Source: Amoebophrya sp. A120
Taxonomy: Eukaryota; Protista; Dinoflagellata
Direction: 5' to 3'
Assembly (NCBI GenBank): GCA_905178155.1
Contig: CAJINV010000001.1
Location: 1,601,904 to 1,665,903 of the forward strand
DNA length: 64,000 nucleotides
Numbering within the stretch: position 1 is the first letter of the stretch; every line of letters starts with the position of its first letter. The notes under the pieces are model-generated. The model saw only the letters and a list, made by a program, of their open reading frames with translations. It did not search any database and was not told where the DNA came from. The position numbers and the translations under genes are program-made. Below are positions 2,037 to 64,000 of the stretch, one piece after another.

Positions 2037-5000
2037 TTATACCTGTTCCCTCTCCACAGGCAAAAATCGTTCCTCTTTGCCTTCATTCACCACAACGGTT
2101 GCGGGCTCCTCGTAAACCTGCTCGTGGCTGTCCCTGGTAATCTCGATCACTTTCTCGATGCAGATAATCTTCGGCACGTCAACCACCTTGTCGACGTACT
2201 TGATCTCCGGTACCTGATCGTGTGGATCGTGATCATGCGTCTTCGATGCATGCATGACAAGTCAGCACATCGTATGGGTGTGATGCGGTACCTGCAACAC
2301 AAATTTTTGAATACTTAGGTGCTGTTTCCATGCCCTGATTCGAGCCTGAAAATACAAATAGCTGTACCTCGACGATCCTCTGGACCTTGCGGATGTTCGG
2401 CACCTCGACGATTTTGTCGACGTACTCGATTTTCGGGACTTCGATGATTTGCTCCTGGCTCACCGCTACATACTTGTCGACGTATCTGTTTTGTTGTTGT
2501 TTTGTTGCTACTTGTGTATGGTGGCGGTGGGAGGATGCGGTATGCATAATGGGAGAGACACGTTTTACTTCTGCGTCCGTCTATCTCTAGATGTAGTGAA
2601 CGCAGGACATGATCCACAGTCGTGCATCTCTAGACACGTGTAGCGCCACACGACCTTTGCGTGATGTAGAAGAGAGACCACGTTCAAGAATTAGCAACAC
2701 TACAGACGTAAAAAAGCTAGTACACACGTACATTCTACTTAACAAATTGAAATACCTTGGGACTTTCTCGATTTTCGGCACCGTGACAAACTTTTGGATT
2801 TTTTTCACGGTTGGGATCTCGACGACCTTGTCGACAAATTTGGGCACTTCGACGATCTGCTCCACAATCCGCTCCGTGGGCACGTCGACGTACTTCTGTC
2901 GTTTCTCGATCTGTGGGACCTCCTTGATGATTTCCACAACCTTCTCGACCGGGACTTCCACCAACTCTTCCTCAAATTGGATTCGCGGCACCTCGATGGT
3001 GTTCTCGATAATCCGATCTTCCGGAATGTCCACATATCTTACCACCTTCTGCGTCTGCGGCACCTCCACGTACTTCGGCACCCTCTTCACCACCTTCCGC
3101 TCTACCACCTTGTCGACAAACTGGGCCGGGCCGGGCACCTCCACGATCTGCTCGAGTTCCTGCACCTCGTCCACGTGCACGTACTTTTATGAGAGTGCAC
3201 AACTCGTCGATCATCTCGACCTTGTTCGATTGTAACAGCAACTGCAAGGACCACTTCTCGCCTTTATGTTTCTTTATGTAGTCATCATGAATACCTTGCA
3301 CGAAGACAAGCAACCCTGCCTCTACATTTTTCATGCAACGGCTCCAAATCCAACAGTAAATTCTGCTGGTGTTTCAGTTTTTGCTTCTCATGCCCAACTG
3401 CTCTTTTCCACCTTCAAACGAGGAGATGATCATGATGGGGGACCAACCACGACTTGTGCCCTTGCATAGCTTCTTGATCTTTTCCACTTGCTCGACCTCC
3501 ACATACTTGGTCACTTTCCGCTCCACTTCGTACTCCTCGATAATCTCCTCAGTGGTGATCTGGTGATAGATTTTTTCATTTTGCTCCTCACATCTCTATT
3601 TTCAAGTTCTGATGCGAGAAATGGAATGCAGGAGGTGGCACTTGTGAAGATGCCGCCCGGCAGGCCACTGTCATAGATACGACGTTCTTGCGACATTTTT
3701 TAAGTACTTTGCTTTCTACTGCATGTACTACATCACCATGATCGCTGTTGCCGCCATCAAGGCCAGTAACTGAAAAATCGAACGACATAGCAGGAACAGA
3801 TATTACCTTCGGCACTTCCACAATTTTTTCCACTTCGGTCACAACGGGCACCTCGACCAGTTTCTCAACGACGACTTTTCTCGGCACCTCGACGTACTTC
3901 GGAACGTGGATGATTTTCTCCTGGATCAGCGGTTTCTTCTTCTCGATGATCTTCTCGATTACCCGCTCCTTCACGACTTCCACGGTCTTCTGACGCTGTT
4001 CCACCACGTGCTTGTGGTGGACCACGTGCTTTTTTTCCACTTCCACGTACCTCTATCCGAGTGCATAATTGTTCCCCCTCCCTCTCACTTGCCATGCAAA
4101 ATCCCAAATCCGATTGCTCCTGCTTATTGTGGCATTGTTTGCATGACATATTCTGGAAGTAGCACAACAGCCAGTACTACACGACTATACACAGAACTGA
4201 ACTTGTCATGCACAGGCTCCACCTGCGTCGGTGTTTGTATTGATGCTCATGCCATACAAATGAGAGGGAGGGGGAGCAGTTGTGCATTCTCCTAACTTCG
4301 GAATCTCGATCTCCTGTTCCACCTCCCGTTGGAGCAATCGCTCAACAACTTCCACCTTTATTTTGGGGGTTGGTTTTCCTAGTCATTCTCATTCACGCAT
4401 CACAGATCTTGTTGTCCTTCCAATCTTGCATGACAAATTTTTTGCAATGCACAGATATACCTTCGGCACTTCGACGATCTCTTCTTCCACAACGTCGACA
4501 GTGACGTGCTTGATGCGCTTATCCAAGAAAAAAACTGTGTGAGAAGTGTAAATTTGTGTAGCAGACGACGCAAGACACTTGCGCCTGTCATGCTGGACAT
4601 GCGTCAGAGGCTCTTTTCGTACAACATGTTTCCACGTACTAGCTACGCATGACAGGTTTTCTATGTCGTGCAGGGGAAACTTGTCATGCTATTGTTTCTT
4701 CAAGAAAGTTACACTTACACAGTTTCTTTCTTGCATACCGCTCCTGTATCTGCGGCACCTCGACATACTTCTGCACCGTGGACAGCTGCGGAATTTCTCA
4801 TGCAGGAGGAGAAGGAAGTAGGAGAGTGCGATTTTTGCACGTGAAGTGCATGGTGTATTGTGATTGCTAGTGCTAGATGGTTAGTCTTATGCTTGGCTAG
4901 CAAAAGATCATGATTAGTTATACTATATTTTCCTTTTTGTTTCTCAGTGCTGTGAGTTTTACAATATGCAGAAGATGCAGAGGTCAGAGCCAGTGATACA

Positions 5001-8000
5001 GATACAGATACAGATGATGATGAAACGTGCTGCTCCGGATTTATTTCCTCATCCTCGTAACTCCCGTTCGATGATCTCCTCTTGGTATTCCACTTTGGGA
5101 ACCTGCAGTTGTTTTTGTTCGGTCCGTTTGTCATGCGAAAAAACACGACACGGAGCAATTAATGGGAATGGAATGGTGTGTAGCGTATTTTGCATGACAG
5201 ACAAGAATAATAAACCAGCTCACGTACTACTACTAGTTCATCTTCTTACAGTCACATCTGTACCTCGATGATCTCCTCCTCGTACACAATCAACGGCTGG
5301 TGCTGGATCCGCTCGTGCACTTTTTCCACGTACACGGGGCGAATTTCCGTGGTCTCGACCGGTCGCTCGACAATCTCTTCGTGGACGGTAATCACCGGCT
5401 TTTCCACAATTTTCTCCACAATCCTCTCGACGGGAATCTGATAATATTTTTCAGATGCTAAATTCCAAAGTTGTGGGAGACTACACGACTGCTGCTGTTG
5501 CGTACGACACAGCACAAGCGCAACTCACTTGCTATATAATTTCGCCTTCACTGCGCAATTCACCCATAGGACGAAGGCGCGCGCAACTGAACAGAAGCGC
5601 AAGTGTTGTTGAGACAGAGCGCGCCTCAGACCGAATCGCACGACGCCCTGCGACGGTCACACTGGCAGCAAACAGAAAACCCGGCCGGCACAGCAAGCTA
5701 CAGGGAGCAAGCCACGCAAGCCAGGCTCTCGAACCCCACAGAGCCACGTCCCGGACGTAGAGGTGGGCCAAGCCGTGGGACACGACATGGGCCGCCGGAC
5801 GCGTTCCCCAGATGTGACTAAATGCCGGGGCGGCCCTGCGAACGGCAGGGGCGAAATTTTGGGCGCGGGGGTGCCCTGTGGTGTGGCCGTTTGTTGCTTG
5901 CCGCTTCTAGTTGGTGAGGTGTTGTGTAGTTCGCTCCGGCTTATGATCACTGTAGTGCGATCTTATACCGGCTAACGCCAGTATTAGACTGGGCCCGGCC
6001 CATGGCAATTGCCAAGGGCCTTGCGGGCAATGCCCTAGGAAGCCAGTAGCGTCGTGTGTTTCTGATTTCTGTCAGCGTGAAACGCAGTGCCCCCTCTCTC
6101 GCGGTTTCACCGCTGACAGGCGAGTGGCCCACCACTGCTGCTCCTCTGCTGCGTCGCAGCTCACATCGGAGAGCAGAATCATGAGACACCCGCGGCACGC
6201 AGAGCGGCAGGCCGCAGCAAGGGCTGCGCTGTTTACCGTTGCGTGTTGCCGAAAGCGCCCTCAGCCAAAGGCCGAGATGACGCCGGACATGTGCCCTGGA
6301 CGGCGTGAAGAACCACACTGCCACATCGTGGCCAGCCCGATCCTTCCTACGCTCCCCCGCCAGTGGCGCCCGCGAGAACCGCGAACGCCGGTAATCACCG
6401 GCTTTTCCACAATTTTCTCCACAATCCTCTCGACGGGAATCTGTTATAGTGTTTTTCTCATCATGCTATTAAATTCCAAATTGGGAGACGCTGCTGCTGT
6501 TCCTGTTGCGTACAACAGGGGACAAGCGCAACTCCCTCGGCGTTAAAAAGTTCTTTGCCATCAACATGCATGATGTACCAGTCTGAACAAAAACCAGGCC
6601 GTGGTACGCAGGTAGGTATTTAAGTACTTACCTGTCTTTGTCTCTTCTGCACCAATGGCTTGTCCACGTATTTGGTTTCAAAATGGATTTTCCCGGTTCG
6701 TATGGAAAGGGAAAGCTATGATACTACCAAAGAGCCGCGGCGGTCTACTGTCATGCTGATTTTTAATATCGTTCAAAATGCATAGTGGTTGCACGTCGTG
6801 GAAAATGCATAACTTTCAAAGATCGGGCTAAGTAGTACTTACATCACGCGCATTAAACTACAGCACGACATCAATCCAACCGCTAGCGCTGTTACACAAG
6901 AACTTTCCTTCCCATAAGCACTTTTCTCTCCACGATTTCTTCTTCATACTCGATTTTCGGTACTTCGATGATCTTATGCTGTGCAAAAGTTTCGTAAAAG
7001 TAGTAATTGCAATCATGCATAGCAAATCTTTTTCTTAAGGTGAGTCAGCATTACAAATTTTATTTTTCCTCCTGCTGCGGAAATTTGTAATGCATTTATA
7101 CGAGTACGATACTTTTCTTGCACTGCATAGATCTCCTCCTCCTCGATTTCGACGAGTTTCTATCCTATGTAGAAACGTCCCCACCCCATTATAGTCGAGA
7201 TGGGGAATCGGCTAGACAAATCCACAAGTTTTGGCTGTTTTGCATGACAAATTTGCACTCGTAGTGTAGCGGTGCTGTTTGAGGTAGTTCAGCAACATCA
7301 CAGAGCGAGCGCATCGTGCTGACTGGAGCATGACAAATCCCAAAACACAACTAGAAAATGCTTCTCATCATGGGGCTCCGCATGAGCAACTCTTTTGGCG
7401 TGCTGATTTGCATGACAACTCTGGGGTGGGGACGTTTTTACAAATGATAGTTTCTCGATGATGTTTTCCTTGATGTTCGGCACCTCCACGTACTTCGGTA
7501 CCACCACGGTCCGGACCATGGGCACCCGCTCGACTTCCTCCTCGTAGACAATCTTCGGGATCTCCTATGCACTGCAAAAGTTGTATTGTATCGCACTAGT
7601 AGCATTCGCATCACAAATTTCTTCAGCGTGAAGAATTGAATTTCAATTTGTGATGCCGATTAGCGTGCATGTACTTACAAAGGTAGATCTGTCATGCATG
7701 ATTGCAATTAGTACGAGCACGATGCTTTTGCAGTGCATATCTCCACAATTTCCTCGATTTCTTTCTCCACCGGACGGGAGATGATGCGACGGTGGACTTG
7801 CGGCACTTCCACTATCTTCTCCACCTCGACCACCTTCTCCACCTCCTTCTCGATGATTTGTTCTTCGTACTGGACTATGCAGTGCAAAAGTATCGTCATC
7901 GCGCTAGTATAAATCGCATCGCAAATTTTCCCAGAAACAAAAATGCAATTTGTCACGCTGGAGAAGGTAGAAAGTTAGATTTGTAATGCATGCGTGCCAT

Positions 8001-8357
8001 TAGCATTACTACGAGTACGATACTTTTGCACAGGATATGGACGACCGGAACCTCGATCACCTCCTCGATCACCCGTTCCAGGGTCTGGATCTCCGGGATC
8101 TCGATGATTTTTTCGACGATGGTCTCCTTCGGGACCTCGATGATCTTGTCTTCCAGGTACTGAATCTCCTTGGTTTCCTGGTCCTCATGCACGACATCCT
8201 CCTCGTCCTTCTTGAAGATGGGTTTCGGCTCCCCCACGCTGAGAATGCGAAAATTTGTCGTGCCCATGCTGGTCGCGGACCCGCCTAGTATGCTCAGCCC
8301 CAGCACGCTGGCGTCCAGCGGACTGGGCTCCTGGTGCGCGTTCACAAACGCCGACAT
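2037..8357 (-). CDS. Alveolin / inner-membrane-complex (IMC/articulin-like) repeat protein, ~15 introns; the 3' end may extend to ~1517
   Basis: Exons rich in EKIVEVP/VPKYVEV repeats join in frame, from ATG 8357, after removing GT-AG introns (2214-2367, 2486-2755, 3560-3806, 5103-5263, 5438-6631) and TAT...ATA elements plus one 5-bp repeat (e.g. EVPVV|QYEEQ, IVE|IPKIV, IIEK|LVEIEEEEI|IEVPK). Confidence 0.85.
3188..3468. mobile_element. Introner, family C-like (TIR element acting as intron)
   Basis: tatgagagtgcacaa...ttgtgcccttgcata; flanks acttt/gcttc (3/5); removal gives KIKK-YVHVDEV in frame. Confidence 0.65.
4054..4294. mobile_element. Introner, family C
   Basis: tatccgagtgcataattgttccccctccctctca...tgagagggagggggagcagttgtgcattctccta; flanks acctc/acttc; restores IPK|YVEVEKK. 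Confidence 0.8.
4520..4737. mobile_element. Introner (singleton family in this window)
   Basis: tatccaagaaaaaaactgtg...cacagtttctttcttgcata; flanks gcgct/ccgct; restores QER|IKHV. Confidence 0.8.
5386..6535. repeat. ~145-bp direct duplication (5386-5530 and 6389-6535) flanking an ~860-bp GC-rich insert
   Basis: 55 bp identical (5386-5440 = 6389-6443; exon start plus AG acceptor); the adjacent ~90 bp of intron is similar but diverged. Confidence 0.85.
6701..6916. mobile_element. Degenerate introner
   Basis: tatggaaagggaaag...ctttccttcccata inverted repeat; direct repeat not retained, but removing element+5 nt keeps the frame (VERK..GKIHFETKYVDKP). Confidence 0.55.
6975..7129. mobile_element. 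Introner, family A
   Basis: tatgctgtgcaaaag...cttgcactgcata; perfect direct repeat gatct. Confidence 0.85.
7161..7449. mobile_element. Introner, family B
   Basis: tatcctatgtagaaacgtccccacccc...ggggtggggacgtttttacaaatgata; perfect direct repeat gtttc. Confidence 0.88.
7566..7739. mobile_element. Introner, family A
   Basis: Perfect 15-bp TIR tatgcactgcaaaag/cttttgcagtgcata; direct repeat tctcc. Confidence 0.9.
7876..8037. mobile_element. Introner, family A
   Basis: tatgcagtgcaaaagtatcg...cgatacttttgcacaggata; direct repeat tggac. Confidence 0.9.
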
Positions 8358-8680
8358 GGCTGCTCGTCGTGACCACTGGGTTTGTTCACTGATCCCGCAG
8401 CTGTTGGTCTGCGAAGATGTTGCGTTTTGAAGATTTCTTCCGGAGAACCCTCTCTCTTTCGACTTCTCAAGCTCGAACTACAACAGCGAGGAGCTGCTAA
8501 ATGGACCACTACACTTCTTGCTGATACTATCGGTAGAGTTTGTTTTTTGGGTGGAACTACGAGAGTATTCAAAAGTAATCCACCCACGATCACCAGTGAG
8601 ATAGAAGTGCCGGCCGGGGGTTGTACTTCGTCGATTCAGCTACAGAAGCTTTTCCTTGGGGATGTAGAGACGTCCCGCTC

Positions 8681-8729
8681 ATAGCAAAGGCAAAGCTTAG
8701 TCAAGAATTATAGCAAAGGCAAAGCTTAG
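8681..8729. repeat. 20-bp direct repeat, two copies, 9-bp spacer
   Basis: atagcaaaggcaaagcttag at 8681-8700 and 8710-8729. Confidence 0.9.
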
Positions 8730-9817
8730 CCGGCGGGGGCACCAGCATACCCTGCTGCTCTCTTACTCTTCAACTACTCGTCCGTCGCTTTTTGTCAAGT
8801 TGTGCTACGTTGTACTGGGGGTCGTGTTTCCCGGGGTAGAGCTCTGCTGACCCGTATCCCCGATTTCGCACAACATCGCGCCCCTGGTAGAATCTCCTCG
8901 TCCGGTCAACAAAATACTGTCGTCTCTCATTTTTGCATTTGCTCTGCCGCAATTATCAAAAATTGATGCCAGTCTGTCAATCTACTCGTCATCCTCACCG
9001 TACCTCTGTTGTAACAATGTGCGGCACTACTTTTCTTGTTCGTTCATTAGGTTTATTTTCGACACTAGTTCTGAATTCAGTCCAAATAGAAGTACACTGT
9101 ACTATGACTTCCGAGCCTCTAAATCTGTCTCCCCTTGATTTCAAGATGTGTATACGAGTTTTCCTCTTGGTTTTTACCATGTTCATGTCTGCACTTTGAA
9201 GACATGTCGTACCACAACGCCGAAATTGATGAAACAGCAGAAAATCATCGACGCATTGAAAGCGATGCTGTTCGCAAACTCCTATAACCTTGGATGGTGC
9301 AACAAATAGAGGAAAAACCAGTAACGTTGAAAGAAAAAGCATCCGACAAGAGGAGCCTTAAGAGACTTCCTCCAGACAAGGACAAGCACGCTACGCGACA
9401 GCTGACAGCACCTCGTAGTACCTCGCAACAAATCAATCCGAAGTAACGCGCAGCACCTAATTTATTTATAAAATGCTTGTTTTTGTTATTCATTGGACGA
9501 CACAACGAGTGGTTTTTCAAATTGCTATGCTACAAGAAACGAAATCTAAATCAGAATAGGCGACGAACACATCAACTAGGGCGCACCATACAAAATGGGT
9601 GAAGGTGCGACGTTTTCCCGCGTCTGGAGATTCCAGTAGCAGTAAGTAGCGTCATATCGCCCAAAAATTGTCACCGTGGTGCTCATGAAGATTGATATTT
9701 ATGGCGATAGATCATGAGGCGTCGCTATTTTTCATTTCTTGTCGTGGCATGCTCTTTGTTGTAGCAGTCGCTTATGCTAGACCTCGACCGACGGCGACGT
9801 CTTCTTGGCCGAAAGCT

Positions 9818-12025
9818 CTAAATTTTGTCTTCTTGTTTGCTAGTAGTTTTGTCACTTCCAGGTTGCACACAACTACTCGTCACGGTCTCCTTCAACGTTT
9901 TTTCTAGTCTCTGGAGGAAACACGTCAACTCCGCCCTGGTCGCCCCGATCGCCACGGCAGTCGCGAGGTAGGGGTAGGGATACGTATCGGAGTGCGCCCC
10001 GTAATTTTTGAACTGGACACCGTCGATGGTTTTTGCGCCGACCGGGCAGGCGACGACGCGCGGGCCGCTCACTCGGTGGTTGAACAACTTCGCGCCGATG
10101 GAATTCAGGACCTGCTTGCGCTTCTTCTCTGCTTCTGCGACTATCGCGCCATCTCCTCCCGGGACGTCGGTTGCAGTGACTAGACCTGACAAATCGACGC
10201 AGATGGAGATTTTGTTTTCTGGCGTGTGCAAAATTCGCAGCTTGAACTGGTCGCACGTCTTCTGCAGTTCCTCTTTGAACCACTCAAAGTCGGTCTTCCG
10301 GGTTTTCCACAAATTCTGCAGCCCGTCGGAGCCCATGGCAAGAAACGTGATCAATAAATCGACCATTTGTGCCCCCGAGGCGCGTCCGGGATAGCACTGC
10401 GCAATTTGGTCGAGCAAGGAGAGTTTGTTTGCTGTTGAAGGTGGGTTGCTAGTCGTGCTGTTAGCTGAAGCTGCACCCGCCCCAGCGTTTTTACTGACAT
10501 CTTCTACTACTTGCGGTCCACCACCACCACCACCACTCTTCATGACCGGCGGCCTTTCCTGTGGCGCGCACACGATGGCGCCGCCGACCGGCACCATAAA
10601 ATTCTTGTCTGTGCTCTGCACCACTACATCGACCCTGCCGGTCCTAGACGCCTGCTCGATGGCCTGCATCGTCCGCGAGCACTGGAGCCCGTATGCGTTG
10701 TTGATCAGAAACGCCACGTCGTGCTTCTGGCAGATTTATCCACAGAAAAAAACCTATCCACATCCAATTTGTCATGCAAAACACGTATAAAATGAAAATC
10801 ATGTTGTTGTCATACAAAAAAGGGATGTGGATGGGTTTTTTTCTGTGGATAAGATTTTCGCGACCTCCTCAATTTTGTCGGGCACGCGGGGGGCGAAGGT
10901 GGAGGCCGTACAGAAAACGCAGAGGATGTTGTCCGCGCCAAAATCCTCTATCGCTTGTTCAATCCCGGCCACGTCGGTCATGAGACCATCCCCGCGAGTA
11001 TCACAGCAAAAAGTTTCAACGTTAACGGAATTTGTGATGCAACAATGCATCACAAAACATGCCGAAATGTGTAATGCATAGCATGCATCTTGGGCTACAT
11101 TGACATTTGTGATGCATGACTGCAATCTGTGAAACAAACCGTTAAGGTTAACACTTTTTCTTGTGATAGCTCGGCGTTTTGATCAGCTCCACGACGATCG
11201 GCGTCAGCCCGCTGGTGTTGATCGCCTTGAAGCAGCTCTTCTGGTCAATCAGGTATCAAATGCAAATATGTCTGGGTCTGGAAGAGTCATGCTGTTTTTG
11301 CATGACGCAGAACCAGAAGGTCTGGAATGGAAGCTCTAGCATCACAGGTTTCGAGAAGCGTTCGCAATGCCGAATCCGCATGACAAATCCCTGATTTTGG
11401 TGACAGAAAGTGGGCAATTTTTGCTACCTATGCATGAGAGGTTTTTCTGTGTTCGGACATGCGCATCACAAGTTTGCATCCTTCCAGACCCAGACATTTT
11501 TGCAGTTAATATCCGGGACCAGATCACGAATTTTCTGTCCTTCGTGGTGTCGCGTTGCTGCAGTGCGAGAAAGCACAACGTCATGGTCATGCCCGTGGCG
11601 AGGGGCACGACGAGCGCGTTTTTGCAGTTTTTAAAGCCGGCGAGTCGCACCGCGTCGAGCGCCAAATACTTGCACAAACTCGCCAGTAAGCTGCTTCCGG
11701 CGGCTTTGGGCTGTTGCGCCACCAAATCGCCGGACCGGCCGACGCCGTGCGTCAAGCCAAAGTGCCGCTCCTGGACGAGTCGGGAAAACACGCGACCCTC
11801 TCGCTCCCCTACCCCAACGTTCCCGTTCGCGTTGTTGGCGTCCATGAGGGAAATTTGCCGGAGAAAGCTCTCGATCTCGAGGTCGGTCCAGGGCTCCTTC
11901 GGAAGTTTCCGCTGGGTGAGGAGCACCATGATTTTCTTGGACAGACTGTTAAAGCCCTGTTCCGCCTGCTGCACGTACCCCGGGTCGAGCAGACCCTGCA
12001 TCTGGCCGAAGTGGGACGCTTGCAT
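9818..12025 (-). CDS. SEPSECS: O-phosphoseryl-tRNA(Sec) selenium transferase (4 exons)
   Basis: Motifs GVGEREGRV, HGVGRSGDL..QPKAAGSS, VVPLATGM, WSR|IDQKSCFK, STFAPRVPD, INNAYGLQ, VQSTDKNFMVPVGG, YPGRAS; frame is restored by removing three TAT...ATA elements. Confidence 0.95.
10737..10851. mobile_element. Introner (115 bp, ~29-bp TIR)
   Basis: tatccacagaaaaaaacctatccacatcc...ggatgtggatgggtttttttctgtggata; direct repeat agatt; restores VAKI|CQKHDV. Confidence 0.92.
10999..11168. mobile_element. Introner (singleton family)
   Basis: tatcacagcaaaaagtttcaacgttaacgg...ccgttaaggttaacactttttcttgtgata; flanks gcgag/gctcg; frame restored (KTPS|GDGLMTD). Confidence 0.82.
11254..11511. mobile_element. 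Introner, family D
   Basis: tatcaaatgcaaatatgtctgggtctggaag...cttccagacccagacatttttgcagttaata; flanks tcagg/tccgg. Confidence 0.9.
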
Positions 12026-30581: not shown

Positions 30582-30693
30582 TATTATGTACTTTTCAAAA
30601 ATTGGCAAACATACTGTCTGCTACACGAAAATGAGGCATCACCCTCAACAATTGCGCGGAGTACTATGAGTTGGAGCTCCCGGCGCATAATTC

Positions 30694-40770: not shown

Positions 40771-40792
40771 TGTGTGTGTGTGTGTGTGTGTG
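40771..40792. repeat. (TG)n microsatellite
   Basis: About 11 TG units. Confidence 0.9.
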
Positions 40793-49800: not shown

Positions 49801-50992
49801 CGCGACAAAATTCTGGGGAAACCCGAGCTTGTTGAAAATCCGGTGCACGTCCGCGCCCACGACCTCTTTCTCCTCATCCGGAACGAATTTGTCTTGGACG
49901 ACCTGCATAGCATTTGTGTATGAGTCCAACAAGCAGCACATGCCGATGCCGAACCGATCACGATGGATATTTATACATGAATTGCAGTAGAACTAGCATG
50001 CTGACAGACGGTGTTGCGGTTCTTGCAGCAGCATTAGCATTACGCATCACGTCCACGCTCTCGCCCTCGCCCACAAGTTATTTCCCTTCTGCCTTACCTG
50101 CAAGTCCGATGAGCCGAGCTCTAGCAGGCTGAGCAATGCTGCGTAGGCGAAGGTCCAGGTGCCGAGCTCAAACTGTTCTTCCTCGTGTAAGGACTTCAAG
50201 GCGTCCCACAAACCTTGGTGCCTGCTTTCGATCGCGACCAGCGTCGCCGCCTCGCAAAAAATGACTTCCCCCGAGCGGAGCGCGTAGCGGGTGAAGAGAC
50301 AGCGACCTTGTTGTATATGGTTCGATTTGAAGTCGGCGGTGAAATAGTTAGAGTTGGCGCTTGTTACACACCTCGCAAACAAGCAACATTCGAGAATCAT
50401 GGAGGCGCTGTTAGTCTCAATGCTGCAAGTAGGACATCTTGATCTTCAATGCCACACGAGTGACGGAAAAACTAGGACAAGAAGGGCAATAAACCTTTGT
50501 TTGGTAGGTCTTGGACAAAGGCCGCGTCCTCTATTTGGTGCCTGGGATAGGGTCGTGCGTCCTCGATCTTGGAAACGTCGGAAAGCGCGATAACGCGGTC
50601 TACCGTGTCCCCATCGTCCCAATCCACCACGACTTCCCCGCCTTTCAGCTCCCGAATCACCGCTGGGTAGTAGGTATGCATTGCAAAAGTTTCGTACTTA
50701 GTACAAATCACACCACAAATTTGCGCAAGAAGAGGAAACGTAGAATTTAAAATGCGTGTACAGCTCGGGAATAAAGACAATTTCGTATTTCACTTGTCAT
50801 GCATGATTGCAAATGCCATCTCCTGTACGAGTGCGACGCTTATTGCATTTCATAGTAGGAGCCGTTTTGGGTCCACTTCGCATGCACCCGGTCCCCCACG
50901 ACGAGACTTTTCCGGGAAGACGTGGAGTTGCGGGCTGAGGTGTGGTTGTTCTGAGGCGCCGCGGGCGGCGGGGGTGAGAATGCAGAGGCCAT
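46853..50992 (-). CDS. Tudor-like + SET (SMYD-like) lysine methyltransferase; the Tudor exons may be a separate gene
   Basis: VGDRVHAKWTQNGSY|YPAVI..VVVDWDDG (Tudor/Agenet-like); GRCLFT..LRSGEVIFCE; YNSF..LYNRISMCAHSCDPSC; GSELTISY; WKFTCGCTRC (post-SET); CGPSHPYS. Confidence 0.82.
47635..47872. mobile_element. Introner, family E
   Basis: Homologous to 43168-43413; flanks tattt/tattc. Confidence 0.87.
48244..48505. mobile_element. Introner, family D
   Basis: tatcaaatgcaaaaatgcctgggtctgga...tccagacccagatatttttgcatttgata; direct repeat gccgg. Confidence 0.9.
48551..48783. mobile_element. Introner, family C
   Basis: tatgaaggtgcaca...tgtgcactctcata; direct repeat agctg. Confidence 0.88.
49563..49712. 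mobile_element. Introner, family A
   Basis: Direct repeat cgttg; restores LIN|AWRYNSF. Confidence 0.9.
50675..50854. mobile_element. Introner, family A
   Basis: tatgcattgcaaaag...ttattgcatttcata; direct repeat gtagg. Confidence 0.87.
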
Positions 50993-54517: not shown

Positions 54518-57500
54518 TCAGCAATACCACGAGTCTGGCCTACAGGTGGTTGTGTGCACCCGAAAACTGTATTTCGGGCAGTAATTCACCGTGTAGGGTT
54601 CCCACAATAACCTGTTCACGCCGTCCTCCTTCCACGGCTTCAATGGGCCGGTCCAGTGGAACAAGCCTCCCTCCTCCAGCACCGGTTTGGGGTAGTTCAA
54701 CCGGTGCCCCAGCCCGTCGACGTTCCACTTGTAGGGCAGTTTGCAGGCCTCGTCGTGGAAAAGGAGCAGCATCAGGGGCTGCGATCCGTGCCGCCAGAGC
54801 GTCTCCGGCCCGGAGTTGTCGCGGGACTGCAGCCAGTGGTCCAGCTTCTGCTGGATCTCCGGGCGGTTGCGCCACCGGGCAAGGTCGATGAGCAAAACGC
54901 CGGCGTTGAAGGCCGGATTGTTCATGGGAATCCATTCCGGCATAAAGGGGTACATGATCCCGGGGAGATAGTTGAACAGCGGCGAGGACGGCCGGATGGC
55001 GGCACAGATATGAACTGCAAAAGTATCGCACTCGTAGTTGATTTCTTAAGCCAGGTAAATCCACATTACAAATTCTTTGTTTCTCATGCTCAGAAAATTT
55101 GTAATGCAATTCAAACTAGTGCGATGCTTATGCTTTTGCGATTCATAACAGACCGTCGCTTGCGATTTTTCCAGCACTGGGGAGAAGTCGGTCCACAACG
55201 ACCGCAAATCCTTTTTGACCAGCACGTCCACGTCGAGGTAAATGACTTTTGCTATCTGCTTTGGTAGCAACTTATGCAAATAGAATCTCACGTAGTTGTG
55301 CAACGCTTGAAGATTCCCCGTGTCCCGTTGAAACCCTTTCGACACGTCAATGTCGCCCCCGACCTGGAACCGTTTCTTCTGCGCCAGCTCGGAGTCCGGA
55401 ATCAAATTTTTCCCGACCATTTGCTCGTCGAGTCGATGAAGAAGAATGGGCGCTGGGCTGCGAGTCACGTCCGGGTGCTGGTGTAGAAGTCGTGTGGGGG
55501 AGATTTTTGATGTTGCAGTTGGGTCATTAGGGGGCCTCATGTTGTTCTCGTCGTCCCTTTGGTGCTGTGCCGCGTACTGCAGTTGATTCGTCACAGTCTC
55601 GGGATTGTCCGCACTCGGTTCTTGTGCTGAACCGTCCTCCTCTCCGTCATCATCTTCGTCCACTTGAGCGACAATGCCTGCGCTTGTCGTGATCGTTTCG
55701 GGAGACTGCTCTCTTTGAGGATTTCCTACCTTGACTGAGTCGTAGAGGACGAATTTTCCAAGTTTCGCGTATTCCGCAGATTTAGATGTTGTTGCTCCTT
55801 CCGGGAGGTCTTCATTTGATTCCGCTTGTGGCGACGTTGAGAACAGCGAGGAGAACATGCCCGCACTACTTCCACTTGCACTCGGATGTTGGTCTAGTAC
55901 TTCTTGCGCTACTTCATCTGGAGGACCACGCGCCGCAGTAGATTTCGTCCCTACTTCGTGAAACCTTTCCGCCCCAAAAGCACACTGCAGCCCGTCCACG
56001 AGAAATTTCCGCTCGTGTTCCAGCAAGAAGACATGAATGCAGGTGTTGGACTATCCTGAGTAAAAACGTCCCCACACCAGAGTCGAGATGGGGACTTCGC
56101 AACACAAACCTTGAAGTTTTGGGAGTCACACATGACAAATTGCAGGCTGTAGTGTAGTGCGGTTTAGCAAGGGAAGCCGCAAAATAAATCCACTCTCTTA
56201 TCCTGTTTGGAGCATTACACGTTCCAAAACACACTGGGAAATGCCTCTCATGGGGATGCGCACAAATCCTCTTGCGTTTGCAGATCTGCATGACAACTCT
56301 GGGGTGAGGATGTTTTTACACAGGATATGGCCGGATTTTCCGCGTGGCGGACCATGGAATTCAAAGCGACGATGATGCCGTCGATCTGCTGGATGTCCGC
56401 AGAGACGGCGACGTGGACAAGATCACCGACGGTTCTTGTGTGGTGATCCAACTGAAAACATCGGCTGGTAAAAACAGATCCACCTCCTGCTCTTTCGTCA
56501 ACTGTTTGATGTCCCTCTACAACCTGCGGCGCAGCGGACGATACTGCTGGCACAGCACTGACACTCGTCTCCTCTTTCGCCCGATTATACTTCCTCCCCG
56601 TCTGCACGGCTTTGTTTGGTGGCGGAATGTAGGAGGCAGACTTCAGATTGAAGAAAAGCATGGGTAGCACCCGCCGGCGCTCGATCCGCGACAGGACTTG
56701 CCAGTACGCCCAGTCAGACCGGAGATGGTGGTAGACCGTCATGTTGGTCCTGCAATTGTGGACCTGCGCCTCCCCGAAAAGAATGAAGTTTTTCGTCTCG
56801 TTCCTGGCCTGCTCGAATGCATTGCAAAAGTATCGTATTCGTACTGATCGGACTTATGCACGACAGATATATCATATCTTGATACCTGACCTCGCATGAC
56901 AAATTGCATTTTTGTTCTTGAGAAAGTTTGTAATGCTATTTCTACGTAGTACGATACTTTTGAAATGCATAGCTCCATGCTGTGCTGGTTGTTCCTCTGA
57001 AACTCCGCCACCGCGGTCTCGATAAGTTGCTCCGCAAGGGTGAAATACGCACTGGCGATCCCACCGTGGCACTTCGCGTCCTCTTGCTCTGCGAGGTAGA
57101 GCAGCGAGCCGAAAAACCCAGCCTGCGTATGCATTGCACAAGTATCTTCGCACTCGTACGTAATTGCGGCTGTGCAGGACAATTGTGTTTCCTAAAGCTA
57201 AACTAACATGACAGATGCCATTTGTAATGCTGAGCAAGGTTGTAATGCAATTCCAATTTCGACCATGGCGGGGACGCGTGCGATGCTTTTACGATGCATA
57301 CTGCGCCGTCTTCGACAGTTCGTGGAACGAACGATCGAGGGCGCGGTCTTCGCTCGGAACTACAGGCGGTGTAGTCGATTGGGGCTGCGCTGCAGCACCT
57401 GATACAGGTGGTGATGAAACAGCATTCGCAAGAACACTGCTGCGCTGGACTCCTGCTGTTCCTGCCCCTGCTGCCTCCCCTACTATTTCCACAAACGGAG

Positions 57501-59850
57501 AATCTACGAACGCCGGCGTCATGTCCATGCTCAAGCCGCTGATGCCAACACCAGTCGGCGTATGAAAGTGCACAACTCCGCCTCGCCCGCATTTGTATTG
57601 CATGAACAGCAAAAATACGAGCACAAGTGTCCTCAGCAAGAATACAGGTTTTGCATGACAAATTATTTGGACAGGAGTGTATAGCTGTTCGGGCTGCTGA
57701 AAGAAACTTGTCATGCAACCAGTGCCAACACGGGCCAAGGCGTAAATTGGGAATTTTGCATGACAAATGAGGGGGAGGGTTGTGGTGCAGTGTCATACGG
57801 CGCCGGGTACTTCATGACGTCCACTTCGTACCTGGAGACTTATTATCCTGTGCAAAAGTATCGCACTCGCAGTAATCGCAATCATGCATTACAAATCTTT
57901 ATCCCAAGGCAAAACAGCATGACAAATTCAATTTGTCATGCTGAGCTAATTTGTATTGCAATTACTATACATTATATTCATGCGAAAAAAGAGGTAGACA
58001 GAGGGTAAACAAGAGGTGGCCGAGAGGTCAAAAAGAGGTCAAAAGAGGTAAAAAAGAGGTCGACAGAGGTGGAGAGGTGGCGCGGACCCCTTTCGAGAGG
58101 GTCGGCGAGAGGGTGCGCGAGTATAGCCCGCCGAAGGCCCCACCTTAAGGCGGCGCCTAAGTGCCTCAGAGGGTGCAGAGAGGTCAAAAAGAGGGGGCGC
58201 GAGAGGTCGACAGAGGTCGAGAGAGGTGGCGCGAATAAGGGGCGACCTTTCGCGGACCCTCTTGGCCACCTCTCGGCCACCTCTGTCGACCTCTACCCGC
58301 GAGTATAGCCGGACTATTAGCGGGGACCCCCAAAAGAGGTAAAAGAGAGGGTCTGCGAGAGGTCTGCGAGAGGGTAAAGACACAAAGTGGCGGGCGCGAA
58401 TCCGCATGGCACTACCCATATTTGGCACTGCAGGCCATTCGCGGACTTGTTTTGTTCGGTGCCCGTCCCCACCACCCTCTCGCGCCACCCTCTCGCGCAC
58501 CCTCTCGCGCACCCTCTCGCGCCACCCTCTCGCGCCACCCTCTCGCGCACCCTCTCGCGCCCCCCTCGCGCCACCCTCTCGCGCCACCCTCTCGCGCACC
58601 CTCTCGCGCCACCCTCTCGCGCTACCCTCTCGCGCCACCCTCTCGCGCTATCCTCTCCCGCCGCGCGCCTTCTGTTCGCCCCCGGTGTTCTTTGCAGCTG
58701 CTCCCTGCGCCGAGCGCCCGCAGGCGCGGGAAGCGCGCAAGTGGTCCTGCGGGTTGGCGCGGCGCAAACCGGCGGCACGAATGCAGTATGTTTCGTTGTA
58801 CATAGGCCCGTGGGGTTGTGGTCCGATCGGCAAACAGTCTTGCCCCGGCCCAACAGCCTTGCGCTCCGGCGGCAGCCGGAGCATGGCTGGTTACTACTAG
58901 TGCGATACTTTTGCAGTTCATACCTGTCCAAGAATATCCAGTAAACTGAACAGTGGCCATCCCGAATTCAGCACGTCCCAGTAGGACAAAGGCACCAACT
59001 TCTTGAAACTCGCGCCGCCCATTTTTGTCGTCTGGAAGTACGCCAGCCGGTCTTCGGGCGGGTGGAGGTAGACTTTGAGGAAATTCAAACACATCATCCC
59101 CAAGTAGCATCGCGACAATGGTGTGAACTCCATCTCTAAATACGGCATCAGAAAATCGATCGCGTTGGATCCCTGCCGGCTGTGCACCACGTCCTCGACG
59201 AGTTGGTACATGCCTCGTTTCACCCCGCCCCAATCCAGGCCGTCCGGCTGCTGAAACGCCTCGCAGGACAAATCGGACACCTCGGCAGCCATGCCACCCT
59301 CATATATCAAATGTAAAAATGTCTGGGTCTGGAAGAACGCAACTTGTGCTGCTGCATTTGGATTCCAGAAGAATCTGTATTGCATGAGTACCAAGAGCAG
59401 GAATGCAATTTTTGCTACGCGGAGAGGGCATTTGTCATGCGGAATAGGCATCGAGAAGCTCTCAAAAAATCTGTGATGCTAGGGCATGCATCACAGACAT
59501 CAGGGCTCATGCAAAACGTGCATGACAAGTGTCAGAATCTTCCAGACCCAAACATATTTGCATTTGATATCATAGCAGTGCGGGCAACTCCACATGTTGT
59601 AGTTGCCGGGCTGCTGTGCGAAGGTAAGGGTTGTCAGAATGGCGAGGAGCGCCGTGAATAGTAGGGCTAGGCGGGGAATGAGCCGAACGATGTGTTCTGC
59701 AGGTCCACCGAGCGGTTTTTGCGGCCACACTGCTCTTATCTTTTCGAGCCAGCGTGGTCTGCGACTGCGTCGCCGTCCAACCTGAGGCTTTCGTATTCGC
59801 GTTCGGGGATACGGCTTCCATGCTGCCGCGGTGGGAATAAGGTCCGCCAT
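54518..59850 (-). CDS. Glycosyltransferase family 8 (GLT8D/GAUT-like) type II membrane protein with a long N-terminal extension
   Basis: N-terminal TM; NYVRFYL, VIYLDVDVLV (DxD), FNAGVLLIDL, GSQPLMLLLF, HWTGPLKPW; seven introners. Confidence 0.88.
55009..55147. mobile_element. Introner, family A
   Basis: tatgaactgcaaaag...cttttgcgattcata; direct repeat acaga. Confidence 0.88.
56052..56327. mobile_element. Introner, family B
   Basis: tatcctgagtaaaaacgtcccca...ggatgtttttacacaggata; flanks tggac/tggcc. Confidence 0.88.
56816..56971. mobile_element. Introner, family A (AAT variant end)
   Basis: aatgcattgcaaaagtatcg...cgatacttttgaaatgcata; flanks gctcg/gctcc. Confidence 0.83.
57128..57300. mobile_element. 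Introner, family A (diverged)
   Basis: tatgcattgcacaag...cttttacgatgcata; direct repeat ctgcg. Confidence 0.85.
57561..57797. mobile_element. Introner, family C
   Basis: tatgaaagtgcac...gtgcagtgtcata; direct repeat cggcg. Confidence 0.87.
57968..58890 (+). mobile_element. Nested ~920-bp element with a Helitron-like 3' hairpin and CTGG end
   Basis: Interrupts the introner at ttacta (present on both sides); ends gctccggc-ggca-gccggagc-atggCTGG; many gaggt repeats in the first third. Confidence 0.65.
58473..58655. repeat. Minisatellite, 12-13-bp unit accctctcgcgc(c), ~14 copies
   Basis: Tandem units visible directly. Confidence 0.92.
59305..59569. mobile_element. Introner, family D (opposite orientation to 11254 and 48244)
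   Basis: Direct repeat tcata; the interior is the reverse complement of the 48244 interior. Confidence 0.9.
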
Positions 59851-60517: not shown

Positions 60518-62363
60518 TCATCTGATGCACACACCCAGACAATCTGTGACGCGTGCCACGATTCGATTTTGAATCTCGTTGACCTCTTCGTGAGTCAGTG
60601 TTCGGCTCATGTCTTGGTACACAATGCGATACGTTTTCGAGCGTCTGTTGGTTTTTGGATGCGTGAAGTCGGAAATTAGGCGGACCGACTCAACTAGGTT
60701 TCGACGTTCACTTAGTCGTGAACGTGATGTTGTTTCAGGCGGATAGTAAATATCGCTGCGCGTGTGTTGCTCATTGTCATCCCCGGCCAGCGGGAGCGCC
60801 AGATCGGCCTCCTCGCGAATGGTCTCGAAGAAATCATTCTCCGGAAACGTGTAAAGGTCTTGTTGCACCGCCGGTTTGACATCGCTGCGAGACATGTAGT
60901 TAGTACTCCCGTTATCCCGTCCTTCACCTTCTGCTTTTTCGGAGCTGCGCAATACTCCTCCCAGATTCTTCTCTCCAGCTGCTTCAAGTGCTGGTAGCCA
61001 AAAGCTGAGGTCTTTTGCAATGGCTGGGTATTTGGAAAAGGGCTTGAATTCAACTTCTCGCCACTTCTCGCCGCCAGCTTCCAGATCCTTACTCAGTGTG
61101 TGAAACTGTTCAAGAAAGCGCTCGTCGTGGGACCAAAACAACCGGATGTCTGGAATCTGGAATATGGATGTGTCAGGTGTGAAATCGTCAAAGTTGAAAT
61201 AGTTTGTCATGCATAAAACGGATACCAGTTAGACCTACAGTTTGTAGTCGGTGCATGGCAAATTTTCCCGGTCCTGGAAGCGAGTCTGTCATGCGGTTTA
61301 GGGCAAAAGAGCTGCCTTCTGTCATGCTAGTTAGCAGTCCAACTTTTGACCCTTACCAGGACTATAATCTGCCTCCCGTGGGTCCTCTGCAATAGAGTCA
61401 CTTTTTGTGTTGCATTTTATGCATGACAAACTATTTCGATTTTGCTGATTTCGATCCTGACACTCCCATATGAAACAGCAGCATCGCAAGGCGCTCCAGA
61501 CCGAAACCAAAGGCCCACCCGGAGAATCTTTTCACGTCGACGTGGCCCTTTGCGAGCACCTCGGGGCGTAATATCCCGCAGCCGAGCACTTCGAGCCAGG
61601 GATCATCGGCAGACTGGGTGGAGCTCCTGTCGGTGCTTATTTCTCCGCGGGAGGAGGGCTTTGAAAGCTTCACTTCCAATTCGAAACTCGGACTGGTAAA
61701 GGGAAAGTAATCGTCGCTCCAACGTAAGAACTCCATGGAAGAGTGATCACGTCTTCTCCCTTGATGTCCAAACAAGTGCCGCATGGTACTCTCGCATGTG
61801 TGGCGGAGGTCAGACTGGATTCTTTCCAAGAACAAATGATCTACCTCGCCGGCCCTTTTTTCGAACAGCTTCACTCCTTCCATTTGGTGGAAGACCGGAA
61901 AGTGCGTGCGGTCAATCTCGTCCCGCCGGTAGACGTCTCCGGTGAGCAGGAATTTCCCGCGCCAGTAATTCTCCGGCTCGTGCGTCGTCGTGTGCGTGCG
62001 GAGGCATTTTCCCTGGTCGTAGTCCTCGTAATACGTGTCATTCGGGAGGCGGCTGCTGTGCCCCTTGGGGATGAGCAAATTGTCAAAATTCTCCGCCACA
62101 GTTACCACCGGGTTAAGCGGGGCGGAGACAAGTGCGAAATCTTTGTTAATATTTTCGACGAAGTGCCGCTCGACGATTTTGCGCACGAGAAATAACGGAT
62201 GATCGTGAGTCTCATGCAAGGTCCGACCGATCTTCTCGCGGATGCCGGAGGGTATGTTCGAGGTGAGTTTCGTGTTCGTGGCAGGCGGTGGAGGCGAGAC
62301 TTGATTGGACAACCGAGGAAGGGCACTTGCGAACGTACGCCGGGAAGACAAAATGGTAGACAT
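60518..62363 (-). CDS. FARS2: Mitochondrial-type monomeric phenylalanyl-tRNA synthetase
   Basis: Arg/Ser-rich presequence; NFDNLLIP..HSSR..DTYY, LRTHTT, GDVYRRDEID.THFPVFHQMEG, YFPFTSPSFE, WLEVLGCG, GWAFGFGLERLAM.LF|QIPDIRLFWS; C-terminal FDX-ACB (FTHPKT..YRIVY). Confidence 0.95.
61163..61470. mobile_element. Introner with ~56-bp TIR
   Basis: tatggatgtgtcagg...gaaatagtttgtcatgcataaaa / ttttatgcatgacaaactatttc...cctgacactcccata; flanks tggaa/tgaaa. Confidence 0.9.
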
Positions 62364-62957: not shown

Positions 62958-64000
62958 TCAGTCCGTATCAAAGTCGTCATCCTTGCAGAGTTTGTAGAAC
63001 CACAGCGGGACGGCGATGACAAAGAGCACCCACGCAGCCCACTTGACCGGGTTCGGCTCGTAGATGCCCGGCCACAACACGTCCCAGAGCGAGTACAGAA
63101 CGATCGGGACCGGCTTCGGCTTCGTTCGCGTCTGGTCCGGCTCCACCCAGGGCGCCGTGGCGATGGCCAGGTCCTTATCCTGTGTAAAAACGTCGCCACC
63201 CGAGGGCTGTCATGCAGATTTGCCATGACAGGAACATTTGTGATGCGCATCCCCATGACAAGTTTGTTCGATCGTGTTTGGGTGGAATTTGTAATGCTGT
63301 AAAGAGGATAAGCAGAGCGATTTGTAATGCGGCTGTCCTTGCTAACTTTCACTACCTTACGGACTGCAACTTGTCATGCGTCACTTCCAAAACTCCTTAG
63401 GTTTGTCTTGCAAAATCCCCATCTTGACTCTGGGGTGGGGACGTTTTTACCTAGGATAGTCCTTCCGGCCCTTGGTGCGCGCGTAGAGGATGGGGGTTTC
63501 CGGGTTCCGCGGGGTCATTTTATCGTAAGGAAAAATCTCCTCCCCATATCGAGACAGGATTCGTGATGCTGGATCTGCGTACACAAATGCGCTCTGTATT
63601 GCAGGAAGGCATTGCGGCCAGTAACAAGTCTAGGTCGGGGCGTTTGGTCTAGTTGCTCAGCATTGCAAACGGCTGCCCCCTAGGCCCAACAGCATGCCAA
63701 ATCGCTTCCATAATGGGACGGGAGCTTCGGCGCTTGTGTTCTTGCAAGACAAATGTGATTTGTGAGCACAAATTAGCAACACAAATTTTCGGAAACATAC
63801 CTTTTCAATATGGGGAGGGGGATTTTTCCTTGCAATACATTTCCGTGATCCACCACTGGTGCAGCGCCTTCTTGTTGTCCGGGTCCGGCGGTGCGTGGAT
63901 CAGGTAGAGCTGGCTCCTCCCCGTGTCTATCAAGTGCAAATATCGATCTGGGTCTGGAAACTTGTCGTGCTAAAGTGTGTTTGGTGGGCGGACTGCAATA
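62958..64000 (-). CDS. 3' part of a hypothetical gene with a C-terminal TM helix
   Basis: ..TKGRKD|LAIATAPW..WAAWVLFVIAVPLWFYK..*; continues beyond the window. Confidence 0.65.
63176..63458. mobile_element. Introner, family B
   Basis: tatcctgtgtaaaaacgtcgccaccc...gggtggggacgtttttacctaggata; direct repeat gtcct. Confidence 0.9.
63597..63837. mobile_element. Possible degenerate introner
   Basis: tattgcaggaa...ttccttgcaata inverted repeat; no direct repeat retained. Confidence 0.45.
63928..64000. mobile_element. Introner, family D (cut by the window end)
   Basis: tatcaagtgcaaatatcgatctgggtctggaa. Confidence 0.75.

Follow-up and report, generated by a model that had tools for sequence, protein, structure and literature searches.

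Introner elements in the window and the word they share

The 64-kb window, that is, the whole stretch of Amoebophrya A120 DNA analysed here, contains an alveolin gene with an IMCp domain and 34 TAT…ATA elements, which were listed by hand and include one doubtful element and one cut by the window end. The elements are short, non-coding, high-copy inserts with terminal inverted repeats and a target duplication, and they agree at their ends with the introners published for Amoebophrya A120. In run X1, the summed contig depth exceeded 34,000 in three element bins compared with approximately 28 on unique DNA. Elements (given without strand) and other motif-bearing stretches of the window are as follows.

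3188–3468, decayed family-E element; 5/5 family sites damaged, one weak matrix match; still spliced
4054–4294, family-E element; 4 matrix sites; excision readable as GT-AG
4520–4737, family-S1 element; 4 sites; spliced
6975–7129, family-A element; 3 sites
7161–7449, family-B element; 3 strict and 5 matrix sites
7566–7739, family-A element; orientation opposite to 44414
7876–8037, family-A element; opposite orientation; pieces of RNA contigs start again at 8038
10737–10851, family-S2 element; removal inferred from contig arithmetic
10999–11168, family-S3 element; 4 sites
11254–11511, family-C element; 4 sites
30765–32390, family-A element; holds a nested insertion of roughly 1.5 kb
33317–33577, family-C element; 5 sites
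38158–38316, family-A element; 4 sites
42268–42417, family-A element; spliced, 155 nt (element + 5)
43168–43413, family-D element; spliced (251 nt); alternating sites 46–49 bp apart
43527–43683, family-A element; spliced (162 nt)
44414–44563, family-A element; spliced (155 nt); site centres 47, 78, 94, and 112
47635–47872, family-D element
48244–48505, family-C element; 6 sites
48551–48783, family-E element; 5 sites
49563–49712, family-A element
50675–50854, diverged A-type element; one internal site
55009–55147, family-A element
56052–56327, family-B element
56816–56971, family-A element; left end AAT
57128–57300, family-A element
57561–57797, family-E element
57844–58922, family-A element; holds a nested insertion of roughly 0.9 kb
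59305–59569, family-C element; 6 sites
61163–61470, family-S5 element, a singleton in the initial annotation; 6 sites
63176–63458, family-B element; 4 strict and 7 matrix sites
63521–63837, family-S6 element; 0 strict and 6 matrix sites, three pairs 32–33 bp apart
63928–64000, left end of a family-C element truncated by the window end
4356–4460, minus strand, GT-AG intron; two sites in the same orientation with a 31-bp spacing; perhaps a decayed element
2214–2367, minus strand, GT-AG intron; two strong sites
5104–5260, minus strand, GT-AG intron; ends approximate, read from frame; two strong sites 64 bp apart
24359–24399, plus strand, site pair 32 bp apart in an intergenic 1.25-kb repeat; second copy at 27425–27465

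The initial annotation had proposed that an internal motif, GCAT(G/C/T)ACAA, occurs in both orientations and links otherwise unrelated introner families. The motif is real: this strict word and its reverse complement match 66 times in the window, 33 times on each strand, while dinucleotide shuffles of the window gave 2.13 matches on average and 7 at most. The supposed rarity in exons and intergenic DNA was also borne out: 62 of the 66 matches lie inside the 34 elements, three fall in GT-AG introns (2252, 4428, and 5128), one in the intergenic repeat (24391), and none in the coding sequence of the window as read here. Intron composition does not explain the enrichment, because the short elements (32, together 6,636 bp) hold 57 strict matches, whereas 200 rounds of dinucleotide shuffling of these elements gave 0.56. 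Of the 34 window elements, 30 contain the strict word and just 22 contain it more than once; thus, the statement that nearly all carry several copies went too far for the strict word, while it holds fully with the wider matrix. The wide form of the word is GCA(T/A)(G/T/C)A(C/G)A(A/G)A. The copies that had been cited as examples were found again (three strict copies in 7161–7449 and in 44414–44563, two in 11254–11511 and in 48551–48783), as was the single strict copy approximately 41 bp inside each end of 61163–61470. In the intergenic 1.25-kb repeat, the motif pair at 24359–24399 lies near one end.

In the examined loci of a second assembly, where 386 elements were called without use of the motif, it was present in 353 of them and in all 14 families. 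Per kb, called elements held 19.8 matrix sites and homologous uncalled DNA 16.9, whereas other DNA had 0.50 and shuffled sequence 0.23, so the enrichment over background was repeated there. Single matches at two loci, L025 and L059, lay outside any element and were discarded as chance-like.

The families proved less unrelated than had been assumed. Their consensus ends start with TAT and finish with ATA in 14/14 cases and mostly show an A-run at positions 11–15 (less marked in E, S5, D, and F11), while weak similarity was left after masking in 7 of the 91 family pairs. The target duplication was exactly 5 bp in 297 of 385 elements, 4 bp in two, and 6 bp in none, the element caller having demanded a direct repeat of 3 nt or more. 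The 14 families are one superfamily in terms of their termini and target duplication. Family A occurs in minus-strand genes 4 and 10 times in the two orientations. A viral contig collection gave no matches to the end patterns of families A and C.

Spacing and conservation of the motif

The sites are arranged on a 16/32-bp lattice, which was absent from the initial annotation. Same-orientation pairs at 30–34 bp numbered 22 compared with 4.2 expected, opposite-orientation pairs at 15–17 bp 17 compared with 3.4, and those at 46–50 bp 15 compared with 4.4, and none of 20,000 permutations reached any of these values. Same-orientation pairs at 15–17 bp numbered zero in the same pair count. In a look-elsewhere test, the best 3-bp windows scored 20 and 17, compared with maxima of 13 and 13 in 5,000 nulls. 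The 30–34-bp same-orientation pair is found in 12/14 families, and the spacing stays while the spacers between sites are unalignable among families. The first site lies approximately 36, 46, or 56 bp from the element end, with a significant phase relative to that end (R = 0.81, p = 0.00065, one end per family). Periods of 10.5 and 11 bp gave R values of 0.83 and 0.81 and are not separable; the site spacings correspond to approximately 1.5, 3, and 4.5 helical turns. In the only copy of an 815-bp element (L041:6184–6998), the sites are confined to 146 bp from the ends.

In held-out copies, mismatch was 3.5% in motif columns, 3.5–4.6% in terminal repeats, and 9.2–9.9% in other pre-selected interior columns, and the motif columns were 2.6-fold better conserved than their equally pre-selected, matched neighbours (3.5% vs. 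9.2%). The motif is under selection, and its conservation equals that of the terminal repeats. Neither of the outcomes that the initial annotation had named as refuting, a lack of enrichment or a motif conserved no better than its surroundings, was observed. Its centre base was T in 367, G in 343, C in 190, and A in 6 cases, and A was avoided in each of the eight families counted. Target duplications decay at 4.4% per site. Motif mismatch was 3.5% in copies with damaged and with intact duplications alike, and terminal-repeat mismatch rose from 3.5% to 4.6% in the damaged ones (p = 0.03). The flat motif mismatch leans toward selection after insertion, that is, toward a host role; duplication damage is, however, a weak clock because the interior columns showed no significant rise either.

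Excision of the elements and the role of the motif

At all seven listed element joints in RNA-type contigs, the removed segment was the element plus 5 nt and one target duplication was left; one of these joints is also readable as GT-AG. The same contigs also lack GT-AG introns, and it was from this loss that runs X3, X4, and X6 were guessed to be RNA, while the DNA-type run X1 covers 2809–4613 without skipping elements. The genes of the window are not covered by the raw-read runs X10 and X11. The exon arithmetic for 4048–8038 did not close and this segment was left out of the splicing evidence. Where RNA fixes the junction, the intron starts 1–2 nt before TAT and ends 3–4 nt after ATA. The element at 3188–3468 has lost the lattice, yet it was excised exactly in three RNA-type runs (one element, one study).

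The phasing of the lattice, kept between unrelated spacers, suggests that a protein binds the double-stranded DNA. We consider it likely that the motif is the binding site of one shared transposition protein, either a transposase or a helper, which would move all families; this DNA-level reading is favoured by the helical spacing, the indifference to orientation, and the subterminal placement in the long element. Protein units would line up in register on the element and draw both ends together, and the assembled complex would cut at TAT/ATA, while the sequence of spacers and terminal repeats could drift freely as long as word and phase stay. The enzyme predicted from the termini and the duplication length would be an integrase-like DDE protein of the IS3/Ginger clan. 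Splicing would be a separate step, probably set by the terminal hairpin. A precedent is the Emigrant MITE, whose subterminal repeats are bound cooperatively by Lemi1 proteins (PMC1636448). Evidence against a transposition role comes from the search for a transposase, which found none, from the accessible text of Farhat et al. (2021), where A120 is likewise described as having no putative transposase (PMC7789003), from the motif mismatch, which does not rise with duplication damage, and from the strong sites in four GT-AG introns of the alveolin gene. The initial annotation had offered a transposase or a dedicated splicing factor as the common binding partner: the shared protein site and the first option gained support, while the second is disfavoured.

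Alternatively, a host DNA-binding protein, related to chromatin or coupled to transcription, could occupy the lattice and mark the inserts for co-transcriptional splicing or tolerance, whereby marked, harmless elements would spread. This is unlikely in our judgement, even though it accounts for all DNA-level features (phasing, strand symmetry, and the lack of a centre A) and for the failure of motif mismatch to rise with copy age. Of the 14 GT-AG introns examined, 4, all in the alveolin gene, hold strong sites, which also speaks for it, as does the TGCATG start of the motif, which may resemble the ApiAP2 site TGCATGCA. As far as the available text of the A120 genome study goes, U1 snRNA was not detected and no putative transposase was reported in this organism with its 29,850 repeated introns (PMC7789003), which would suit a marking host protein. 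However, 3188–3468 is excised exactly though its lattice is destroyed, and the splice register tracks the ends and does not follow the distance to the first site, which varies (36/46/56 bp). A transposition complex would need sites locked in phase to the cut end, and motif decay (3.5%) is near that of the target duplication (4.4%), as if the sites decayed freely after insertion. A combined possibility, in which a transposase or its domesticated form polymerises on the phased lattice, mobilises the elements, and also marks them for U1-independent co-transcriptional excision, seems quite improbable; if true, tens of thousands of introns would be read by a chromatin code rather than by splice sites.

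It is very doubtful that the motif acts as an RNA signal, such as a site for a splicing factor or snRNA or a stem of the folded intron. Inverted copies are able to pair in RNA, with mean predicted probabilities of 0.46–0.87 in 13/14 consensus folds; motif–motif pairing is expected of any inverted repeats. Centre bases co-varied at p < 0.01 in 2 of 17 site pairs, and tail-to-tail pairs at 15–17 bp had 63 matched centres compared with 36.5 expected when families were pooled. This excess, however, is gone within families (413/963 Watson–Crick centres vs. 401 expected), and in family C, 20 of 71 copies have a matched outermost pair compared with 30 expected. Besides, no single guide base would pair with C, G, and U yet not with A, same-strand genes hold elements in both orientations, and the 31–33-nt same-orientation spacing would have no clear single-strand meaning. 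A splicing code is less likely because the sites are indifferent to orientation, their centres do not co-vary, and the decayed copy is spliced exactly. The absent co-variation is moderate evidence only, since the control on terminal repeats, which gave a clear signal in S1 and in two columns of family C, failed in A. Passive inheritance of motif and spacing from one ancestral element, with no present function, would agree with the common termini and the weak similarity of a few family pairs. It is already largely refuted and appears highly improbable, since the spacing is kept though the spacers are unalignable, the motif columns are conserved well beyond their neighbours, and the centre takes three bases and avoids the fourth in 8/8 families counted.

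Relation to known systems and the search for a transposase

Introners and subterminal sites are already known, while the motif and the lattice were not found described in the literature searched. In the available text of Farhat et al. (2021), both the movement and the splicing of Amoebophrya introners are stated as open questions (PMC7789003). The A120 introners described there resemble the present elements in their inverted-repeat start (TAT, seven variable positions, and AAA), short direct repeats, non-canonical splice ends, length (approximately 150–320 bp), co-oriented genes, and 51% GC content. Their terminal repeats are 8–20 nt long, they fall into 1,954 families, and the direct repeat at the exon/intron boundary is given as 3–5 nt, compared with 5 bp here. 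That text argues against general transposase-mediated mobilisation and, as far as it was available, mentions no internal motif or spacing rule, both of which are present in our elements. Gozashti et al. (2025) class most A120 families as "TIR DNA, unknown" and stress diverse origins in the part available (PMC12130899), whereas the motif binds the 14 families into one system.

With their short, non-coding sequence, inverted repeats, target duplication, high copy number, and conserved near-end repeats (placement judged from one 815-bp copy), the elements have the features of MITEs. Subterminal repeats are also carried by hAT and CACTA elements. Emigrant/Lemi1-type MITEs are alike in their short repeats inside the termini, in both orientations, and in the cooperative binding expected (PMC1636448). 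Unlike in these precedents, one word is common to families with different terminal repeats, the lattice extends through the entire short element, and excision of the elements as introns leaves no scar; among the MITE precedents compared, as far as their sources were available, so strict a 16/32-bp lattice across unalignable elements is unusual. According to the accessible parts of the respective papers, IS3EU/GingerRoot elements share the TA..TA termini but usually have a 6-bp duplication (PMC10045372), which no element showed here, while TDD-4 and TDD-5 of Ginger2/Tdd share the 5-bp duplication, and the Ginger1/Ginger2 termini are TGTNR instead of TAT…ATA (PMC2836005). Euglenid nonconventional introns are similar in their terminal hairpin, non-canonical junctions, duplication-like repeats, and proposed MITE origin; they differ in that their conserved features lie at the paired ends, and the available text describes no internal phased motif (PMC11282704).

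With one word and a strict spacing rule, many "families" would thus belong to a single system served by a single trans-acting partner. The lattice offers a defined bait for protein pull-down, paired minigene mutants could part mobility from splicing, and an autonomous element would be recognisable as a long TAT…ATA insert that has the lattice close to each end. Neither such an element nor a transposase was found in the approximately 0.55 Mb examined, and no transposase domain was detected in 58 of the 219 locus frames of at least 200 aa or in five window frames. Among the six long TAT…ATA pairs found, L075:4652–8859 was rejected as an autonomous element, being a host gene flanked by a separate family-C copy on each side, and the others, L041:1255–9905 aside, are either the 815-bp element or short elements interrupted by insertions. 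The frames of L041, including 6184–6998, and of L039 gave no Pfam transposase match. One longer homologue, P0001, was likewise rejected as a transposase, as it is probably a spurious gene model with no domain. By its dimensions alone, the motif-carrying 815-bp element L041:6184–6998 can be likened to fam38, which is listed in the available text as a Ginger-like TIR DNA family with a 5-bp duplication, TA/TA termini, a length of 808–810 bp, and TIRs of 49–53 (PMC12130899).

Motif content and conservation of the introners

The strict word GCAT[GCT]ACAA or its reverse complement was matched 66 times in the window, 33 times per strand, where dinucleotide shuffles averaged 2.13; this confirms the enrichment in introners and in both orientations noted in the initial annotation. 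Of these matches, 62 lie inside the 34 elements with TAT…ATA ends compiled from an arm-pairing search and inspection by eye. The other four are in GT-AG introns of an alveolin gene (three) and an intergenic repeat (one). The 32 short elements alone contain 57 strict matches, compared with 0.56 after shuffling just those elements. The statement that nearly all elements carry several copies stood in part: 30 of the 34 have a strict copy, but only 22 have at least two. The 34 include a doubtful element at 19851–20010, which has weak arms, no matching duplication and one site at position 13, and is probably not a true member of the set. A weak motif variant was also seen inside the family-A terminal repeat itself, centred at position 8 (e.g., 30765–30780).

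Metagenome contigs were scanned with the family-A end pattern alone, without use of the motif. This gave 165 stretches from 16 of 64 collection parts, and 160 loci were taken on. A single assembly (contigs JACKZZ01) contributed 157 of them; its best copies are 72–94% identical to the window copies, which places it in the window's own organism or a very close one. After exclusion of six redundant loci and the three from other assemblies, in which the motif is absent, 151 loci (491,895 bp) remained. A motif-blind caller, which recovered 24 of the 34 window elements, added three others and made 0–1 calls in shuffles, identified 386 elements in these loci, 353 of them with a strict copy, and 749 of the 1,146 strict matches in the loci fall within the 82,912 bp of called elements. 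The 386 locus and 31 window elements formed 33 clusters, 14 with at least three members, and the word is carried by most members in every family. Family A makes up 167 of the 417 clustered elements, being over-represented because the loci were picked by its end, while the supposed singletons S1, S2, S3, S5, and S6 turned out to be families.

A matrix derived from 14 consensus sequences, GCA(T/A)(G/T/C)A(C/G)A(A/G)A, has 77 sites in their 3,191 bp, compared with 0.95 in shuffles. Called elements have 19.8 sites per kb and homologous but uncalled DNA 16.9; the rest has 0.50 and shuffled sequence 0.23. Across the seven families represented by 15 copies or more, conservation was 0.84–0.94 for the eight outer motif columns, 0.70–0.81 for the interior and 0.66–0.87 for the motif centre. 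To guard against circularity, conserved columns were picked from one half of the intact copies and evaluated on the other, where the mismatch was 3.5% in the motif (108/3,056), 3.5% in the terminal repeat and 9.2% in other interior columns; the motif is thus more conserved than neighbouring element positions, one of the two points on which the initial annotation had let its proposal depend. The centre base is T in 367 sites, G in 343, C in 190 and A in six. Avoidance of A on one strand means avoidance of T on the opposite one, a pattern that would arise if the 5-substituent of thymine clashed in the major groove. The start of the motif may resemble an ApiAP2 site.

Spacing of the sites and relationship of the families

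A regular spacing, absent from the initial annotation, was found when distances between site centres were measured in the consensus set. Same-orientation pairs at 30–34 bp numbered 22 (4.2 under random placement), and opposite-orientation pairs 17 at 15–17 bp (3.4) and 15 at 46–50 bp (4.4), none of these counts being reached in 20,000 trials; same-orientation pairs at 15–17 bp were not found in this set. Since the distance windows were picked after the histogram had been viewed, the best 3-bp window anywhere was tested too, giving 20 and 17 against null maxima of 13 and 13 in 5,000. The 30–34 bp pair occurs in 12 of the 14 families (null 0/5,000), the 15–17 bp pair in eight (11/5,000) and the 46–50 bp pair in eight (62/5,000), and the spacers between sites are unlike one another. 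In family A, the final two sites of like orientation lie 31 bp apart in 101 of 130 copies. Outward-facing first sites group at 36–38, 44–48, and 56–59 bp from the element end with a period of about 10–11 bp (R 0.81, p 0.00065; one end each, 12 families), although the p-values for the spacing are all optimistic because related families are not fully independent.

The description of the families as otherwise unrelated was not upheld. TAT starts every consensus end, and an exact 5-bp target duplication flanks 297 of 385 elements (4-bp in two, 6-bp in none; the caller itself required at least 3 nt). Masking of motif and termini left weak similarity (p ≤ 0.01) in seven of 91 family pairs and none such in the rest. 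The families form one superfamily. The window, at 51% GC, has minus-strand genes as read and one protein with an IMCp domain, and its element ends agree with the A120 introner end consensus, TAT followed by seven variable bases and three A, in the accessible part of PMC7789003. On these grounds the organism is probably Amoebophrya. We concluded that the elements are members of the known Amoebophrya introner class and that the motif is a real, selected and spatially ordered site common to it.

Excision and the candidate role of the sites

Seven elements are skipped in contigs of sequencing runs X3, X4, and X6 (all one study, taken as RNA by guess), each as the element plus 5 nt and alongside GT-AG introns; run X1 covers 2809–4613 without skipping elements. 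Across elements 10737, 10999, and 11254, one contig is 558 nt shorter than the genome, corresponding to their summed length with 5 nt added per element. Imperfect duplications, combined, place the intron start 1–2 nt upstream of TAT and its end 3–4 nt past ATA. The family-E element 3188–3468 is excised exactly despite damage to all five sites and two mismatches in its target duplication. Excision at 4054–4294 can be read as GT-AG because the element finishes in TAG, with the remaining bases coming from the duplication. Introners might become canonical introns in this way. At 59304–59336, a family-C end is matched by 90 reads that continue into different motif-bearing sequence; they come from X10, a raw-read RNA run with no coverage of the window's genes, and represent an unspliced copy belonging to another locus or strain.

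The spacings amount to 1.5, 3, and 4.5 turns. Together with the phasing of sites relative to the cut end and their disregard of gene strand (family A lies 4 vs 10 in the two orientations), this suggests a protein bound on duplex DNA. Between the transposase and splicing-factor roles proposed initially, the first is favoured: quite probably, the sites are where one shared transposition protein would recognise the elements. This reading draws on the DNA-level spacing and phase, the subterminal sites of an 815-bp element (below), near-chance matching of centre bases and the exact excision of damaged 3188–3468, the last two of which speak against an RNA signal. Centres of potentially paired sites match in 413 of 963 cases, against 401 expected, and even with two of 17 site pairs significant for centre-base matching we regard an RNA signal as very unlikely. 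Recognition by a host DNA-binding factor is somewhat less improbable, yet still unlikely. Three results count against a transposition protein: no transposase was found in the examined frames of the loci and window; copies with damaged duplications show raised mismatch in the terminal repeat but not in the motif; and strong sites are present in four of the 14 GT-AG introns inspected. These four may be decayed elements, two having weak HMM matches (E 4.5e-5 to 0.004) that the motif itself may drive.

Related elements and neighbouring repeats

An 815-bp element in metagenome locus L041 (6184–6998) has family-D-type ends, a 5-bp duplication and subterminal sites, at 48, 96, 146, 684, and 770 with none in between; its frames gave no Pfam match. 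Subterminal repeats are known from hAT and CACTA elements. The introner sites would work like the subterminal transposase sites described for MITEs in the available part of PMC1636448. By dimensions alone, the L041 element agrees with fam38, characterized in the accessible text of PMC12130899 as Ginger-like with a 5-bp duplication and TA/TA termini, and this likeness is the sole lead to an integrase-like partner. Assignment to Ginger or GingerRoot was rejected on defining termini or duplication length, as given in the available portions of PMC2836005 and PMC10045372. The term "subterminal" is absent from the accessible text of PMC12130899, as are GCAT, TTGT and "internal" from that of the PMC7789003 supplement, motif-logo figures excluded. 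Neither word nor spacing is described in the available introner and MITE literature, including parts of PMC11453091 and PMC11282704, a body from which subscription papers are mostly absent and beyond which supplements or theses may bear on novelty.

Other repeats were observed in the window. An intergenic 1.25-kb direct repeat (24273–28654; copies 24338–25562 and 27404–28654, 95% identical) is bounded by a repeated 50-bp unit at 24273, 25503, and 28595, lacks TAT ends and, close to one end, carries two motif sites with a spacing of 32 bp. A separate 730-bp repeat without the motif (29852–30583) has a 91.5% identical copy at L055:10423–11154 and a longer relative at 30895–32380, nested in the family-A copy 30765–32390. 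Near the end of another family-A copy lies an insert of 0.9 kb that contains ACCCTCTCGC units in tandem (about 57968–58895); its relative at L011:505–1608 is placed likewise in an S5-like copy, and the insert may be a second element targeting introners. A 4,266-nt contig bridges the alveolin (IMCp) frames at 2041–8766, which belong to a single transcript, and 5386–5529 is duplicated at 6389–6537 with 81% identity.
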